Shown: positions 1-8,049 of the stretch, piece by piece | How the letters are laid out: every line of letters starts with the position of its first letter | Numbering within the stretch: the stretch's first letter is position 1 | Source: Salinispira sp. | GTDB taxonomy: Bacteria > Spirochaetota > Spirochaetia > DSM-27196 > Salinispiraceae | Assembly (NCBI GenBank): GCA_965602015.1 | Contig: OZ271918.1 | Location: 1,280,001 to 1,344,000 of the forward strand | Length of the DNA: 64,000 nucleotides | Reading direction: 5' to 3' | The notes under the pieces: generated by a model | Databases searched by the model: none | The model's input: only the letters and a program-made list of their open reading frames with translations | Told to the model about the DNA's origin: nothing | Position numbers and translations under genes: made by a program

Positions 1-818
1 CACATATAGGACTTGCTGGTGTTGGATTTCTCCGGCTCGTTCATAACCTGAACGGTTGTTTCATCCATTTGAATGACTGGGCCGGATTCTAACTGCTGTT
101 TGAGCAGATCCTTCAGCGGCTTCAATGCCTGATACGCCTTCTGCTGCCAATTGGACATGTCCTGCCGGCTGATCCTAGCCCCAACCCGCTCAAAGCGCTT
201 TTCCTGGCGGTAGTACGGCAGGTGATCGACGAATTTATTCTGAATAATGAAGGCCAGAAGCTCCGGGGTCGCAATGCTCTTGGGGATGATGGACGGCGGA
301 ACCGGCGCAATGCGGAACACCGGTTTGTCTTCATCCCCGGAACCCTCGCAGTTCCGGCAGGCGTACTTGGGCCTGATATGCCGTTCGACGAAAAACTGCT
401 CGGGGATGGTTTTCAGTTTTTCGCTGACTTCTTCGTCAATTTTGGAAAGCTCGTGCCCGCAGGCGCAGCGTTTCTGGTCTTCTGAGATGTCGTGGATCAC
501 ATCGACCCTGGGAAGGTCATCGGATAAAGGCTTTCGCCCCCGCTTCTTCCGCGTATGTGAGGTGACCGTGGTGAGAGAACTGTCGGTTTCCGGCTCATCG
601 GGCGGTGTTGACTGAATCTCCCGTTCCTCAAAGAGCATGGCCTGCAGCAGCTCTTCAGCTGATTCACTGCTTCGGGCAAACTTCCGGAACCGGGCCAGCT
701 TGAGCTGTTCCTGAAGGTCTTCGATTTCCAGTTCCTGCTCTGAAATTCTGGAACCGAGTGCGACTATGTGAGCCTGGACTTCCTCGGGTAACTGTTCAAT
801 CTCCGCCGCACTCAGCAT
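1..818 (-). CDS. tnpC: IS66 transposase TnpC, N-terminal part (truncated by window edge)
   Basis: ATG at 818 opens MLSAAEIEQL..KFARSSE..GRKPLSDDLPR..CACG..RPKYACRNC..KFVDHLPYYRQ..QMDETTVQV (IS66 zinc finger and DDE start); I saw no stop. Confidence 0.92.
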   Translation of the reverse strand, partial: MLSAAEIEQLPEEVQAHIVALGSRISEQELEIEDLQEQLKLARFRKFARSSESAEELLQAMLFEEREIQSTPPDEPETDSSLTTVTSHTRKKRGRKPLSDDLPRVDVIHDISEDQKRCACGHELSKIDEEVSEKLKTIPEQFFVERHIRPKYACRNCEGSGDEDKPVFRIAPVPPSIIPKSIATPELLAFIIQNKFVDHLPYYRQEKRFERVGARISRQDMSNWQQKAYQALKPLKDLLKQQLESGPVIQMDETTVQVMNEPEKSNTSKSYM

Positions 819-860
819 GGGTGAAATTCTAGCATAAAGGGATTAATCGATGGAAGAGGA

Positions 861-1208
861 TTAGTTGCATTCGGCATACTGAACTGCTTTGTGGGCGTGC
901 CAAAAATCAATGCCATCGAGCAACATCTTGAGTTCGCCCACAGTGATCTGCCGGGCCTGCTCCTCGGTGTTCGGCCAGGGAAAGCGGTCCTTTTCCAGAC
1001 GCTTGAGCCATAGACAGAATCCGTTGCGGTCCCAGTACACGCATTTGATCAACCGACGGTCCCGGTTGCAGAACAGGAACAGGGAGCCTGACATCGCCGA
1101 CCGGTTCATCTGCTGTTCAACAATAACAGACAGACCATTCACCTGTTTGCGCATGTCCGTTACCCCCGGGCGGACATAGATTTCCAATCCGGTGAGATCC
1201 AGCATCAT
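861..1208 (-). CDS. tnpB: IS66 accessory protein TnpB
   Basis: TDMRKQVNGL, LFLFCNRDRRLIKCVYWDRNGFCLWLKRLEKDRFPWP; ATGA overlap with tnpA. Confidence 0.95.
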   Translation of the reverse strand: MMLDLTGLEIYVRPGVTDMRKQVNGLSVIVEQQMNRSAMSGSLFLFCNRDRRLIKCVYWDRNGFCLWLKRLEKDRFPWPNTEEQARQITVGELKMLLDGIDFWHAHKAVQYAECN

Positions 1209-1507
1209 ACAAAAGCCGCCAGTACTTCCCGCAGGCGGGCGGAGGAGATTCCATCTGCCAACAGAATGCGAAACCGCCGATCGATCTCGATGATGATTTC
1301 CGTCGAACAGTCTGAGGTGGCAGGTGGCGTGATTCGGACCAACTCGGGTAGCGCTGCTTGGGCGGCCGAAGCCTTTTTTAGCCGCTTCATCCAGTAATGC
1401 AGGGTTGAAAGCTTGATATCCCGGGCCCGACAGAACTCTTTCTGCGTCTGTCCGCTTTCCCGCCACTGGCTAATGACCTCTTGCCACTGTTCAATCTTCG
1501 CATCCAT
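1205..1507 (-). CDS. tnpA: IS66 accessory protein TnpA (HTH)
   Basis: WRESGQTQKEFCRARDIKLSTLHYWMKRL; first gene after the IRL. Confidence 0.9.
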   Translation of the reverse strand: MDAKIEQWQEVISQWRESGQTQKEFCRARDIKLSTLHYWMKRLKKASAAQAALPELVRITPPATSDCSTEIIIEIDRRFRILLADGISSARLREVLAAFV

Positions 1508-1578
1508 AATTCCTCCAGGTGGAAGAATTATTTCATTTCAGGCTCAGGCTGTGCAGGGCCTGGTAAATTGACGCTTAC

Positions 1579-4500
1579 GAAAAAAAGTAGCAGGATTAAA
1601 GCTGCCATTCTCAAGTTACCTGCCGCATAGGCAGCTTAGAAAATTTATGACATATCAGAGTTTGAACCGTTTATGTTACCTGCCGCATAGGCAGCTTAGA
1701 AAGCACCCCGTCGATAATCAATGCGTCATCTGTGGTTACCTGCCGCATAGGCAGCTTAGAAAAGAAGAACCCAGTTTACAAAGAACCGGATTACGTTACC
1801 TGCCGCATAGGCAGCTTAGAAATCGTCGAATGTGTGAGAGCTCGTCGGCGTGTCGTTACCTGCCGCATAGGCAGCTTAGAAAATGAAGTCGGCAAGGGAC
1901 TTCTCCCGAGCTTCGTTACCTGCCGCATAGGCAGCTTAGAAATGCGAAGCGCGGCCAGCGGAGCCCGGATTGAGGTTACCTGCCGCATAGGCAGCTTAGA
2001 AAAAGTGTAAACTCAGGCCCTTCCTTCTTCTCGAGTTACCTGCCGCATAGGCAGCTTAGAAAAATGATATTCCGAATAAATCCGTGATTCTTTCGTTACC
2101 TGCCGCATAGGCAGCTTAGAAATGACATAAATCCGTCAGATTGGAAATTCATCAGTTACCTGCCGCATAGGCAGCTTAGAAATCTTAGAAATCCGCGAAC
2201 GTCAAATTCGATACGTTACCTGCCGCATAGGCAGCTTAGAAAATATGTGTTATTGAGAAAGTTCGCCTCAACTTGTTACCTGCCGCATAGGCAGCTTAGA
2301 AAATTTGGACCGGTGAGAGTACATTACCGCCACCGTTACCTGCCGCATAGGCAGCTTAGAAATGGCTCGTCCGGAGCCAGGAGCCCACCTATCAGTTACC
2401 TGCCGCATAGGCAGCTTAGAAACGTCATATGTGACGAATGACACATCCGCGTAAGTTACCTGCCGCATAGGCAGCTTAGAAAAAATACAGAGCCGGTTCA
2501 TGTGCATTAAACGAGTTACCTGCCGCATAGGCAGCTTAGAAATGTGGGTTTTGATTTCCAGGTGCACTGTAATCGTTACCTGCCGCATAGGCAGCTTAGA
2601 AATTCTGGGTTCGAAGGTAGTAGCGATGAATAGCCGTTACCTGCCGCATAGGCAGCTTAGAAATTGTGGGCGTGGTACTCGTCAACGATTACGCAGTTAC
2701 CTGCCGCATAGGCAGCTTAGAAAGACATTCGGCGACAAGATGCAAATGAGTGGCAGTTACCTGCCGCATAGGCAGCTTAGAAAGAAATGCAAACACCACC
2801 GGACAGCGTCGGTTTGTTACCTGCCGCATAGGCAGCTTAGAAATCCGCTGAATTGACATGGTAGTCTCAAGATTCGTTACCTGCCGCATAGGCAGCTTAG
2901 AAAACCAGCGGCACGGCAGTAGGGCGGTTCTCCCTGTTACCTGCCGCATAGGCAGCTTAGAAAATCGACGCCATGACCGAGGGGGAAGAATGAACGTTAC
3001 CTGCCGCATAGGCAGCTTAGAAAATGAACCCGAAGGATAATCTTGCCAATATCTCGTTACCTGCCGCATAGGCAGCTTAGAAAGCTACATGGGCATGACT
3101 CTGGAGTAACTCTGGGTTACCTGCCGCATAGGCAGCTTAGAAAAGATTACGCTGAAAACAGCTTCAACCGGGGCGGTTACCTGCCGCATAGGCAGCTTAG
3201 AAATCATCGCGGACAGTATGCTTACTTTTCTCGATGTTACCTGCCGCATAGGCAGCTTAGAAAAAAGGGAATCCGAGGCAAAATCTTCATTGACTGTTAC
3301 CTGCCGCATAGGCAGCTTAGAAAATGTACGAGCGTAGTTCGCTCGATGTGTCCGCGTTACCTGCCGCATAGGCAGCTTAGAAACGACGAGATCGAATCCG
3401 GGGAAAATTACCAGTGTTACCTGCCGCATAGGCAGCTTAGAAATCGAGCGTCATATCAGCCCCTTATCAATATATGTTACCTGCCGCATAGGCAGCTTAG
3501 AAATCGGTCTTTTGCCAGTCTGTCACGGGCCTCATGTTACCTGCCGCATAGGCAGCTTAGAAACACAAGCGACAAGCCAAGGGAAGGTTTACTATGTTAC
3601 CTGCCGCATAGGCAGCTTAGAAAAGTAGGGGTTTACGCTATGCTTGTGCATATTCGTTACCTGCCGCATAGGCAGCTTAGAAATGTCAGGCTGTCATACA
3701 CATTGTGATCTATCTGTTACCTGCCGCATAGGCAGCTTAGAAACCTGATGCTGGAGGCTCTCATAAAGAATATATGTTACCTGCCGCATAGGCAGCTTAG
3801 AAAAAAGGGGGAAGTATATTTAATAAAATCTCTTTGTTACCTGCCGCATAGGCAGCTTAGAAACAGTATGGTCTCTTTTTATGCCAAGAATAGGGGTTAC
3901 CTGCCGCATAGGCAGCTTAGAAATTCATTCGAATGAAAGAGCATAAAGGGCTTTGGTTACCTGCCGCATAGGCAGCTTAGAAATAAAAGAATCATTCGTC
4001 GTGGCGGTTATGAAGGTTACCTGCCGCATAGGCAGCTTAGAAAACAAAAAGGAGAAATACATGGTGGGTAGCAACGTTACCTGCCGCATAGGCAGCTTAG
4101 AAATTGTCGGTGGACGGTCAAGCGATAGCGGTTCAGTTACCTGCCGCATAGGCAGCTTAGAAACGATGGTGCTTAAAGACAGTGCTGCAATGATAGTTAC
4201 CTGCCGCATAGGCAGCTTAGAAATATTCATGGCATGGTGGGTTAGCATTATCGCCGTTACCTGCCGCATAGGCAGCTTAGAAATTACTCCAGAGTGGATT
4301 GGCCCAACAGCAGATGTTACCTGCCGCATAGGCAGCTTAGAAATGTACGTCCATGTCCCGGATCGTTTTCCCGGTGTTACCTGCCGCATAGGCAGCTTAG
4401 AAAGCCGAGAGGCTGAGGCGTATGTACAGGAGACCGTTACCTGCCGTATAGGCAGCTTAGAAATACTCCAGGCGAGGTAATCCACGTTGAGACGAGTTAC

Positions 4501-5585
4501 CTGCCGCATAGGCAGCTTAGAAAATGATTTCCCGCTGGGCCTGCTTCAAAAGAAAGTTACCTGCCGCATAGGCAGCTTAGAAAGTAAATAGATAGGTTCG
4601 AGAGGTCCGCTTGAGGTTACCTGCCGCATAGGCAGCTTAGAAAAAAGCACTGCTACTATCATCGCCTACCATTTCGTTACCTGCCGCATAGGCAGCTTAG
4701 AAAAAACAGCTTTTTGAAATCATCGCTCATAGTGTGTTACCTGCCGCATAGGCAGCTTAGAAATGCAGCCGGTTTTGCCTTGTCGCCAATTTCTGGTTAC
4801 CTGCCGCATAGGCAGCTTAGAAATTGATTTGACCGGCAGACTGTCGACGGTTATCGTTACCTGCCGCATAGGCAGCTTAGAAAGCTGCGCCAAGAAATAT
4901 CGATTCGTCTATTTCGTTACCTGCCGCATAGGCAGCTTAGAAACACCCGGCATACCCCGGCCAAAATGGTTGCGGGTTACCTGCCGCATAGGCAGCTTAG
5001 AAAAGCTCGAGTATGAAGAGGGCGGTAGGATCATTGTTACCTGCCGCATAGGCAGCTTAGATATTTTACAAAAGAGGAAATCGATACCACCACTTGTTAC
5101 CTGCCGCATAGGCAGCTTAGAAATCATAGTAAAAGGTCGCGGAATGGAAATAAAAGTTACCTGCCGCATAGGCAGCTTAGAAAACAGTCGAAACCGAGAA
5201 AGGTGCGACAGCTTCGTTACCTGCCGCATAGGCAGTTTAGAAATTAATGATGTGATCGGCGGCGTTGTAAACGTAGTTACCTGCCGCATAGGCAGCTTAG
5301 AAAGCTGAGACTACCCTCGCGTTCAGCGCCGTAACGTTACCTGCCGCATAGGCAGCTTAGAAATAATATTGTAGGGGCAATTGATAACCGTGAGGGTTAC
5401 CTGCCGCATAGGCAGCTTAGAAATAAACCAACATGTCAATGAATCATCAATAAGTGTTACCTGCCGCATAGGCAGCTTAGAAATGGGCTTGTTCGTCATG
5501 TGCCATAGTTTACTCGTTACCTGCCGCATAGGCAGCTTAGAAAATTGCCGGGATTTGTCGATCCTGTGTGTACCCGTTACCTGCC
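1579..5585 (+). CRISPR. Type I-F CRISPR array: 66 full 28-bp repeats GTTACCTGCCGCATAGGCAGCTTAGAAA (first at 1615, last at 5516), 67 spacers of 32 bp (one of 33 bp), partial repeats at both ends
   Basis: 60-bp periodicity; CTGCC-pentaloop-GGCAG Cas6f/Csy4-type hairpin and GAAA 3' end; residual GAAA at 1579-1582 and GTTACCTGCC at 5576-5585. Confidence 0.99.
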
Positions 5586-6181
5586 GTAACCGTCAATTTA
5601 CGCCTGCACGATTGACTTCAGCTCCAGTAATTCGTCTTTGATGTTCCATGGCAGCAGATCTTCCCAATTCCCCGAATCACTAATCTCTGGTGCCTTGGTG
5701 AAGACATGCACCAGATACCCGTAGGGATTAATTCCGTTCTGCCGGACCGTCTCGATAAGCGAGAACATAAAACAGGAGCTTTCAGCGCCTTCCGGGCTTC
5801 CTGAGAATAGCCAGTTCTTGCGCCCCAAAACAAAAGGACGGATTGCATTCTCCGCGCCATTGTTGTCCGGGGTCAGATGCGGGCTCTCTACATATTTCAT
5901 GACCTTATCCCATTGCGACAGGGCGTAGGTCACCGCCTGTCCGACAGCGCTTGATGGACGAACGCTTAGCGCTTTCTTTTCGAGCCAGGCTTTGAATCTC
6001 TCTGCTACCGGGGCAATGCGGACTTTGCGCTTGTGGGTAAACTCTTCATCGCTCAGGTTTTGGCACCGAGCTCTTTCTCAATTCGGTAGAACTCGGCGAT
6101 CTTCGATATGGCCTCATGAGCGCTGCCGGCTTTCTTTGATGACTTACCCGCTTCAAAGAACTTCCGGCGGACATGGGCCAT

Positions 6182-6210
6182 TTTTCGCGATTCCTTCGGA
6201 TTCGCGATTA
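6182..6210. repeat. About 29-bp hairpin insertion E3 in tnpC (opposite orientation)
   Basis: Interrupts the HVGC|MAHVRRKFFEA motif and introduces TAA; minus strand reads TCGCGA-A-TCC-GAA-GGA-A-TCGCGA. Confidence 0.65.
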
Positions 6211-6378
6211 GCACCCCACGTGAATGATGTCAGAGCGGCCCTTCAATGCCGTTTCATAGCCCACATAGCCATCGGTTTGCAGGTAGCCTGAAAACCCCGA
6301 GAGGTACCCTTTCGCATACTCAGATCCGCGGCTTCGATGGTAGGCATAATCCACCACTGGTTTCTCAGGCAGCCCGCC

Positions 6379-6420
6379 CTGGCTGCATTGGCGAGCAGGT
6401 TCCGAAGGAACCGACCAGCC
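6379..6420. repeat. 42-bp structured palindromic insertion E2 in tnpC (in frame)
   Basis: Adds WSVPSEPARQCSQG inside WLARG|GLPEKP; same architecture as E1 with GGTTCC-GAA-GGAACC. Confidence 0.75.
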
Positions 6421-6496
6421 CCGGGCAAGCCACATATAGGACTTGCTGGTGTTGGATTTCTCCGGCTCATTCATAACCTGAACGGTTGTTTCATCC

Positions 6497-6540
6497 TGGC
6501 TGCCTGGCCGGGCAGTAATCCGAAGGATTACGACCAGGCC
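6497..6540. repeat. 44-bp structured palindromic insertion E1 in tnpC
   Basis: Absent from IS copy 1 (TCATCC|ATTTG at 61-71); folds as CCTGG/CCAGG outer stem, CTGCC/GGCAG hairpin and GTAATCC-GAA-GGATTAC hairpin. Confidence 0.85.
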
Positions 6541-7295
6541 ATTTGGATCACCGGACCGGATAGCAGCTGCTGTTTCAGCACATCCTTCAGCGGCTTTACT
6601 GCCTGATACGCCTTCTGCTGCCAATTGGACATGTCCTGCCGGCTGATCCTGGCCCCGACCCGCTCAAAGCGTTTTTCCTGGCGGTAGTACGGCAGGTGAT
6701 CGACGAATTTATTCTGAATTATGAAGGCCAGAAGTTCCGGGGTCACAATGCTCTTGGGGATGATGGACGGCGGAACCGGCGCAATGCGGAACACCGGTTT
6801 GTCTTCATCCCCCGATCCTTCGCAGTCTCGACAGGTGTACATACTTGGGCCTGATATGCCGTTCGACGAAAAACTGCTCGGGGATGGGTTTCAGTTTTTC
6901 ACTGACCTCTTCGTCAATTTTAGGAAGCTCGTGCCCGCATGCACAGCGCTTCTGTTCTTCTGAGATGTCGTGGAGCACATCGACCCTGGGAAGGTCATCG
7001 GATAAAGGCTTTCGCCACCGCTTCTTCCGCGTATGAGAGGCGACCGTCGTGAGGGAACCGTCGGTTTCTGGTCCATCGGGCAGTGCTGACTGAATCTCCG
7101 GTTCTTCGGGCAAACTTCCGGAACCGGGCCAGCCCCAGCTGTTCCTGGAGGTCTTCGATTTCCAGTTCCTGCTCTGAAATTCTGGAACCGAGTGCGACTA
7201 TGTGAGCCTGGACTTCCTCGGGTAACTGTTCAATCTCCGCCGCACTCAGCATGGGTGAAATTCTAGCATAAAGACATTAATCGATCCAAGGGTCT

Positions 7296-7643
7296 TCAGT
7301 TGCATTCGACGTATGATAGCGAACGGTGCGCATGCCAGAAATCGATTCCGTCCAGGAGCATCCCCAGTTCGCCCACAGTGATCTGCCGGGCCTGCTCCTC
7401 GGTGTTCGGCCAGGGAAAGCGGTCCTTTTCCAGAGGCTTGAGCCACAGGCAAAATCCATTGCGATCCCAATACACACATTTGATTAACCGCCGATCTCTG
7501 TTGCAGAACAGGAACAGGGAGCCGGACATCGCCGACCGGTTCATCTGCTGTTCAACAATAACAGACAGACCATTCACCTGTTTGCGCATGTCCGTTACCC
7601 CCGGGCGGACATAAATTTCCAGACCGGTGAGATCCAGCATCAT
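7296..7643 (-). CDS. tnpB: IS66 TnpB (copy 2, intact length)
   Basis: Near-identical to 861-1208. Confidence 0.92.
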   Translation of the reverse strand: MMLDLTGLEIYVRPGVTDMRKQVNGLSVIVEQQMNRSAMSGSLFLFCNRDRRLIKCVYWDRNGFCLWLKPLEKDRFPWPNTEEQARQITVGELGMLLDGIDFWHAHRSLSYVECN

Positions 7644-7941
7644 GCAAAAGCCGCCAGAACTTCCCGCAGGCGGGCGGAGGAGATTCCATCCGGCACTGAA
7701 ATGCGAAACCGCCGGTCTATCTCGATGATGATTTCCGTCGAAGTGCCTGATGTGGCAGGTGGCGTGATTCGGACCAACTCGGGCAGCCTGCATCACCGCC
7801 CGATGCCTTTTTTAGCCGCTTCATCCAGTAATGCAGAGTTGAAAGCTTGATATCCCGGGTCCGACAAAACTCTTTCTGCGTCTGTCCGCTTTCCCGCCAG
7901 TGGCTAATGATCTCTTGCCACTGCTCGATCTTCGCATCCAT
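7640..7941 (-). pseudogene. tnpA: IS66 TnpA (copy 2, frameshifted)
   Basis: Matches copy 1 until KKAS then shifts frame; 302 bp versus 303 bp. Confidence 0.85.
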
Positions 7942-8012
7942 AATTCCTACTGGTGGAAGAATTATTTAATCTCAAGCTTAGGCTGTGCAGGACCTGGTAA
8001 ATTGACGCTTAC

Positions 8013-8049
8013 GATACTTTCGTGCATTTGTGACATTGATTGAACTCAT
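8013..8049 (-). pseudogene. 5' stump of a Phd/YefM-like antitoxin gene truncated by IS66
   Basis: GGAG RBS, then ATG at 8049 encoding MSSINVTNARKY, ending at the IS terminus; tandem CGTACG palindromes upstream. Confidence 0.6.

Follow-up and report, generated by a model that had tools for sequence, protein, structure and literature searches.

Two small inserts in a decayed IS66 copy, E1 and E2, were found to be real insertions, and they almost certainly belong to a family of mobile repeats. The copy lies in a 64-kb stretch of DNA, the whole of which is referred to here as the window. The family appears to be undescribed; its general kind, that of tiny repeats like REP, SDR and RPE, is already known. 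The reading that is modestly favoured is that E1 and E2 are gene-less mobile elements that insert after C or CC and move as folded single-stranded DNA (ssDNA), cut and joined at C by a putative trans-acting enzyme. The relevant features are as follows.

1..1580 of the window, minus strand: a portion of one intact IS66 copy (C1 1279226-1281580), in which the E1 site, at 61-71, is empty; this copy interrupts a CRISPR spacer, and its insertion duplicated 8 bp of the target.
1615..5587 of the window, plus strand: CRISPR array (Rfam CRISPR-DR4), with 66 full repeats in the window and a further 7 to the left of the intact IS; it is given as context and does not belong to the element.
5589..8013, minus strand: decayed IS66 copy (tnpA, tnpB, tnpC), 86% identical (gaps included) to three intact copies, with several other lesions.
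6182..6210, minus strand: E3, a hairpin-forming insert of 29 bp whose GAA triloop is on the opposite strand, overlooked in the preliminary description.
6378..6419, plus strand: E2, a 42-bp family member, antisense to tnpC, adding 14 amino acids in frame.
6496..6539, plus strand: E1, a 44-bp family member that causes a frameshift in tnpC.

The decayed copy, which has Pfam matches to DDE_Tnp_IS66 and TnpB_IS66, is located at the end of the CRISPR array. The array comprises 73 repeats (window 1615-5587; C1 1270593-1278729), is split by the intact IS66 and ended by the decayed one, and ORFs upstream of it resemble, by eye, a type I-F cas operon. Three intact IS66 copies are present in the genome, mutually identical as printed in the alignment; another of them (C1 2185339-2187693) is embedded in repeats whose source is the end of a 5S rRNA gene.

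E1 and E2 are missing from all three intact copies in the alignment, and the comparison of filled and empty sites defines the ends of both. E2 can be placed in registers from 6376-6417 to 6380-6421, with 4 bp of microhomology (GCCC, span 6376-6421), and E1 in registers from 6495-6538 to 6497-6540, with CC as microhomology (span 6495-6540). Empty sites were also found in an independent metagenome (X5), where contigs of a related IS66 lack precisely 42 bp (with 4 letters ambiguous) and 44 bp (with 2 letters ambiguous), each a single contig (depth 4.7 and 6) with 88% likeness. The filled sites are seen in Logan contigs of the same organism: run X1 spans E1, E2 and E3 with 0 differences and runs X2 and X3 span E1, the three runs being one sample that may be the source of the assembly. 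Thus, the preliminary description was right to regard E1 and E2 as insertions, and its statement that E2 is in frame, with 14 extra stop-free codons in tnpC, and that E1 shifts the frame was also confirmed. Its further claim that the inserts inactivated the IS goes beyond what can be shown: compared with the intact copies, the decayed one carries additional lesions (a deletion of 44 bp, an insertion of 4 bp, 1-bp deletions and E3), so E1 and E2 cannot be named as the cause. CRISPR spacer acquisition was rejected as an origin of the three inserts, as their sizes (42, 44 and 29 bp) differ from the ~32 bp found between repeats and they lie outside the array with no flanking repeats. Beyond the array region, no match in the genome was found for any of 71 CRISPR spacers.

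E3 does not belong to the E1/E2 family and is a second kind of micro-insertion. It folds well as DNA (z=-2.99), and among 99 genomes only E3 itself was found; 10 further matches elsewhere form no hairpin, and 2 viral matches are listed.

The preliminary description had suggested a family of ~40-bp non-autonomous elements, and further copies were indeed found in the genome and its relatives. The family is visible only through a pattern or covariance model and not through BLAST, which with E1 and E2 as queries gave only short chance matches in their own genome. With the IS66 as query against 61 related genomes, extra matches covering E1 or E2 alone were seen in unrelated DNA. A first search pattern, built on the GAA loop, was dropped (5/99 genomes, 4 control matches). 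A pattern based on the shared core was found in 28 of the 99 genomes of the order, one of which (G051) is a chance match with no hairpin, versus 1 of 99 for the reversed control. The richest genome is G006 (79 matches, 93% complete), followed by G101 (75), G099 (63) and G002 (30); ten matches in G002 are identical, and the four inspected all lie within one group II intron. With a covariance model built from 81 copies, E1 and E2 excluded, the window yielded two matches, E2 (56.3 bits) and E1 (42.8 bits), and no other. In the genome to which the window belongs (G000) the model gives at least 15 copies, a lower bound with 150 of 2,338 candidates scored, made up of 7 dispersed copies and an 8-unit array at C1 1800540-1800881. 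The units of this array are 43-bp tandem repeats with a variant lower stem that does not show pairing of the family type.

The pattern was also found in 7 of 401 genomes sampled across the phylum. A scan of 5 of the 64 parts of GTDB gave 124 loci, which extrapolates to ~1,800 stretches, and 96 of the 124 pass the hairpin test. In the 80 rows that are named, true members are mostly Spirochaetia and Clostridia, plus Cohnella/Paenibacillus and one Geobacteraceae, and rows that fail the test are mostly GC-rich Proteobacteria and Actinobacteria. The estimate for metagenomes is ~1,400 stretches, and among 32 viral stretches ~10 are genuine members; viral contigs scanned with the left half only (76 stretches) contain no long element with these ends. 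The spread of the family is wide and patchy; some genomes hold bursts of 60-80 copies, and the motifs found in two phyla are nearly identical. Rfam gave no convincing match over E1 and E2 at E<=5 (only radC, 18 bits, E 1.4, against a cut-off of 40), and none over six array loci besides one tRNA. No description of the family was found in the literature searched, and a 14-base motif was absent from the papers listed, although subscription papers, figures and further supplements could hold a description. The supplements of PMC6006769, PMC3733652 and PMC8632094 have no family match, and the family motif is absent from the supplements of two REP surveys.

The unit is 38-50 bases long and, read 5' to 3' on the strand that is probably the functional one, consists of the leader C-N-GG-N2-GCAT, a lower stem of 3-4 bp, an internal loop (5x5), a variable top stem and a GACCAG-N-C end, the leader being seen across 81 aligned copies. 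The strands of the internal loop, CGAGCAG facing CGACCAG, are two-fold symmetric around a central G-C, and the pairs predicted within it are G.A, A.C, G-C, C.A and A.G. In E1, an A to G change converts A.C to G-C, in agreement with the proposed register. As a single interrupted hairpin the family is 96.4% paired, a value reached by 0 of 500 shuffles; slid controls give 26-44%. The lower-stem pair beside the internal loop, which played no part in row selection, occurs as four pair types with 16 double changes and is kept in 90 of 92 members, versus 11 of 36 chance matches. The top stem did take part in selection, making its covariation counts partly circular. In an independent test, a perfect top stem of at least 4 bp is present in 83 of 105 pattern matches with the GG leader, versus 9 of 47 without it.

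A Y-shaped fold, with a CTGG/CCAG outer stem and a CTGC/GCAG hairpin, had been proposed in the preliminary description. These two stems have 0 compensatory changes and pair in 73% and 82%; the Y is possible on paper but is not supported by covariation, which favours the single interrupted hairpin. The second hairpin with its C-GAA-G loop is present in some members (18 of 92), but is just one of many loops. Similarly, conservation of structure rather than sequence describes the top stem, which varies, but not the leader and the CGA(G/C)CAG strands, which are near-invariant across phyla, part of this invariance being built in by the search pattern. GNA triloops form stable DNA mini-hairpins. Among 163 distinct top stems, the loops are GNA (66), ANA (17), GNYA (17), GNRA (11), T-rich (20) and other (32), so that 111 are closed by G-N-A, A-N-A or G-N-N-A, with GNYA more frequent than GNRA; these loop types point to ssDNA of this strand rather than RNA. 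Under the ViennaRNA DNA parameters, which may undervalue sheared pairs, neither E1 nor E2, taken alone, has the family structure as its best fold, E2 folding no better than shuffles (z=-0.17).

In non-tandem copies, the base three positions ahead of the leader GG is C in 145 of 178 cases, and the base two positions past GACCAG is C in 175 of 178. With ambiguous rows and nested-repeat rows left out, filled and empty sites could be paired cleanly in seven cases, with inserts of 42-45 bp (E1, E2, C1:3796199, L040, L073, L111, L430). Thus, the unit extends from C-N-GG to GACCAG-N-C and lands after C, with 1-4 shared bases, and the insertion at CC given in the preliminary description is borne out as a C/CC target. 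Neither terminal inverted repeats nor a target duplication of fixed length was found, but instead 1-4 bp of C-rich microhomology; a DDE-type MITE was rejected on both counts. Head-to-tail arrays of 2-6 units, some with mixed variants, are found at 29 of 225 loci, with variable junctions of 3-5 bases between units. Partial units at the same 225 loci are symmetric (21 trailing, 22 leading).

Copies occur intergenically, in frame in proteins (L010, L073), in IS66 tnpB (L044, L452) and at several sites in IS91-like genes, with up to three per gene (L036, L073, L370, L502). They are also found within group II introns, one DGR, tRNA-tail repeats, the loops of GTAG-REPs, MITEs and other repeats. Two dead IS91-like genes (L370:280-640 and L502) carry two or three separate inserts each, those of L370 being co-oriented, as E1 and E2 are. 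An apparent inverted pair in G160 was rejected as such, as it represents two inserts in a dead IS91-like gene. This genome also has mosaic hairpin repeats with tRNA 3' fragments (C1 3600316-3600606, 3602743-3603033, 546871, 2939692, 1805800, 2587823, 1482949); some adjoin integrase-like genes, and a family element is nested in three.

Under the favoured ssDNA reading, the symmetric loop and leader would form a recognition site bound by a trans-acting protein, which would cut 3' of C. The unit may then be excised or copied as a ~42-nt single-stranded circle with its junction at C, and strand transfer to a target C would leave the 1-4 bp repeat. Since the element ends in CC, it could serve as its own target, giving head-to-tail arrays of mixed variants. 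Copies would persist mostly at sites where they do no harm, namely dead IS, intergenic DNA, the loops of MITEs and REPs and in-frame loops of proteins, and might also hitch-hike within group II introns and MITEs. Mismatched ssDNA hairpins and short cleavage motifs have a precedent in IS200/IS605 and REP elements (PMC6006769, PMC3479197). The insertions, their ends and microhomology, the covarying stems, the arrays and the wide patchy spread are observed; the strand, circle and enzyme are inferred. Several findings go against the model. About a tenth of loci have partial units on each side, which exact cut-and-join alone would not yield, neither a circle nor a new insertion was observed, no mobiliser was found, and, as above, E1 and E2 alone do not fold best as the family structure. 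The bias to the lagging-strand template known from IS200/IS605 is not seen by local GC skew, a noisy proxy (25/46, 21/41, 8/15, 3/6, 2/8), and a sixth set is opposite to the lagging-strand direction (5/20, p=0.04).

No recurring or dedicated neighbour gene was found among 183 flanking ORFs searched with Pfam or in ORF clustering, and the frequent neighbours in G006 are multicopy host genes. Y1, Y2, RT and PDDEXK_3 proteins were each tested as linked mobilisers, and all were rejected.

An RNA route is an unlikely alternative, in which an RT of group II intron or DGR type primes at the 3' CC of the target, copies a short structured RNA, sometimes repeatedly, and rejoins via microhomology. It would accommodate the variable unit junctions and the occurrence of partial units. 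Moreover, all five retroelement-linked copies (G002 intron/L065, L092, L034, L364, G027:C316) run antisense to the RT gene, which places the G-N-A strand on the cDNA, and the opposite strand of the element could also pair as RNA, across the internal loop, through G.U wobbles. However, RVT_1 was not found in the complete G000 or in the draft genomes G006 and G099, which have at least 15, 79 and 63 copies, RT is present in 9 of 28 element-positive versus 16 of 71 element-negative genomes (related genomes not being independent), the loops are of DNA type, and the partial units are symmetric rather than one-sided.

Spread with no dedicated mobiliser at all is somewhat harder still to credit. Here the hairpin would be bound by a host protein of replication or repair, and copies would arise from existing ones by template switching or microhomology-mediated patch repair. 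The lack of a linked enzyme is consistent with this, as are the longer flanking matches to the unit junction seen in some copies (L010, L011, L050) and the occurrence of several inserts together in dead IS copies (this window, L370, L502). The precise ends of the seven pairs, with homology of just 1-4 bp, argue against it, and the patchy bursts of copies with near-identical motifs in two phyla are a better fit to a horizontally spread factor.

The preliminary description had pointed to a RAYT/Y1 HUH mobiliser, and movement of a REP-type element by RAYT or IS200/IS605 TnpA, the gene being lost or unassembled in many carriers, is now improbable. The size, the mismatched hairpin, the unpaired conserved 5' leader and the short C-based cleavage motif are like those of REP/TnpA(REP) substrates, and Y1_Tnp genes are present in G100-G103. 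However, Y1_Tnp was not found in seven carriers, namely G000, G002 and G055 (single contigs), G005, G006, G044 and G099, the blank in G006 and G099 not being proof of absence in draft genomes. Such genes are present in 9 of 28 element-positive versus 24 of 71 element-negative genomes, the covariance model has 0 matches at 43 Y1/Y2 loci, and the family has no GTAG or CGTC tag, its arrays being head-to-tail and not alternating. The known Y1 families are thus largely refuted as the mobiliser.

An IS91 (Y2 HUH) transposase or a GxxExxY nuclease is very unlikely: copies do lie inside IS91-like genes (L036, L073, L039/40/45, L038/189, L370, L502), and in G000, G002 and G099 a copy immediately precedes a GxxExxY gene on its upstream side, but the copies disrupt these genes instead of bordering them, paralogues without the element are present (7 of the 8 GxxExxY loci in G000), Y2_Tnp was not found in G000 or in the draft genomes G006 and G099 by a search that was positive in G002, G100 and G101 (the control set giving no signal for this family), and PDDEXK_3 was not found in G006, G100 or G101. 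Nine PDDEXK_3 matches, to multicopy GxxExxY genes, were seen in G000.

More tentatively, and with less probability than the ssDNA reading of E1 and E2 themselves, the family may represent a cross-phylum class of ~42-nt mobile ssDNA elements with recognition through the symmetric loop, insertion at a single C, a mobiliser outside Y1, Y2, RT and DDE, and the top stem as free cargo. If so, it would be a minimal portable insertion system. The transposase-less movement of very small repeats (SDR, CGTC repeats, RPE) is a standing question, for which the family offers a sharply defined substrate, with an invariant loop, a free stem, known ends and a known target base. There are also carriers with 60-80 copies beside zero-copy relatives, as well as complete RAYT-free genomes, a combination that makes the mobiliser accessible to comparative genomics and pull-down. 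Additionally, proteins gain loops of 14-15 residues from the family, which also contributes to the disruption of IS66, IS91 and DGR genes.

Among known systems, the SDRs of Nostocaceae, which Elhai et al. reportedly described in 2008, are very small mobile repeats with no transposase, nested in repeats and introns and defined by their fold, with no known mobiliser. The E1/E2 family resembles them in consisting of tiny transposase-less repeats nested in other repeats and introns. It differs in its length of 38-50 nt, its symmetric 5x5 loop, its arrays, and a range that spans Spirochaetota and Bacillota. Rickettsia palindromic elements (RPEs), of ~100-150 bp, are similar in that palindromic repeats lie in frame in protein genes (here E2, L073 and L010), but have no sequence likeness to the family. 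According to PMC3733652 RPEs end in CGTC, and according to PMC5861425 SDR5 uses a short target site.

REP, BIME and REPIN elements with RAYT (TnpA-REP), tagged with GTAG or CGTC, are described in PMC3733652, PMC6006769, PMC3479197 and PMC3116915 as imperfect hairpins of 20-65 nt with an unpaired conserved 5' foot. The family is like REPs in its short imperfect hairpin, its many dispersed intergenic copies, some of them genic, and its short C-containing cleavage motif. Unlike REPs, it has no GTAG, GTGG, CGTC or CnGA foot and no linked Y1 gene, and it forms direct head-to-tail arrays and clean single-unit insertions with empty sites. IS200/IS605 elements (PMC6006769) share with it a circular ssDNA intermediate (proposed here), the lack of inverted repeats and an element end resembling the target motif. 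However, the family has one hairpin and not two ends, a C/CC motif of 1-2 bases and not a tetranucleotide, no link to TnpA, and no replication-strand bias by the noisy proxy of GC skew. It does not fit a non-autonomous IS200/IS605 derivative, of which two subterminal hairpins and a fixed tetranucleotide target would be expected. The best reading is of an SDR/REP-like non-autonomous ssDNA element with a putative mobiliser, set apart by its unusual symmetric loop and its spread across phyla.
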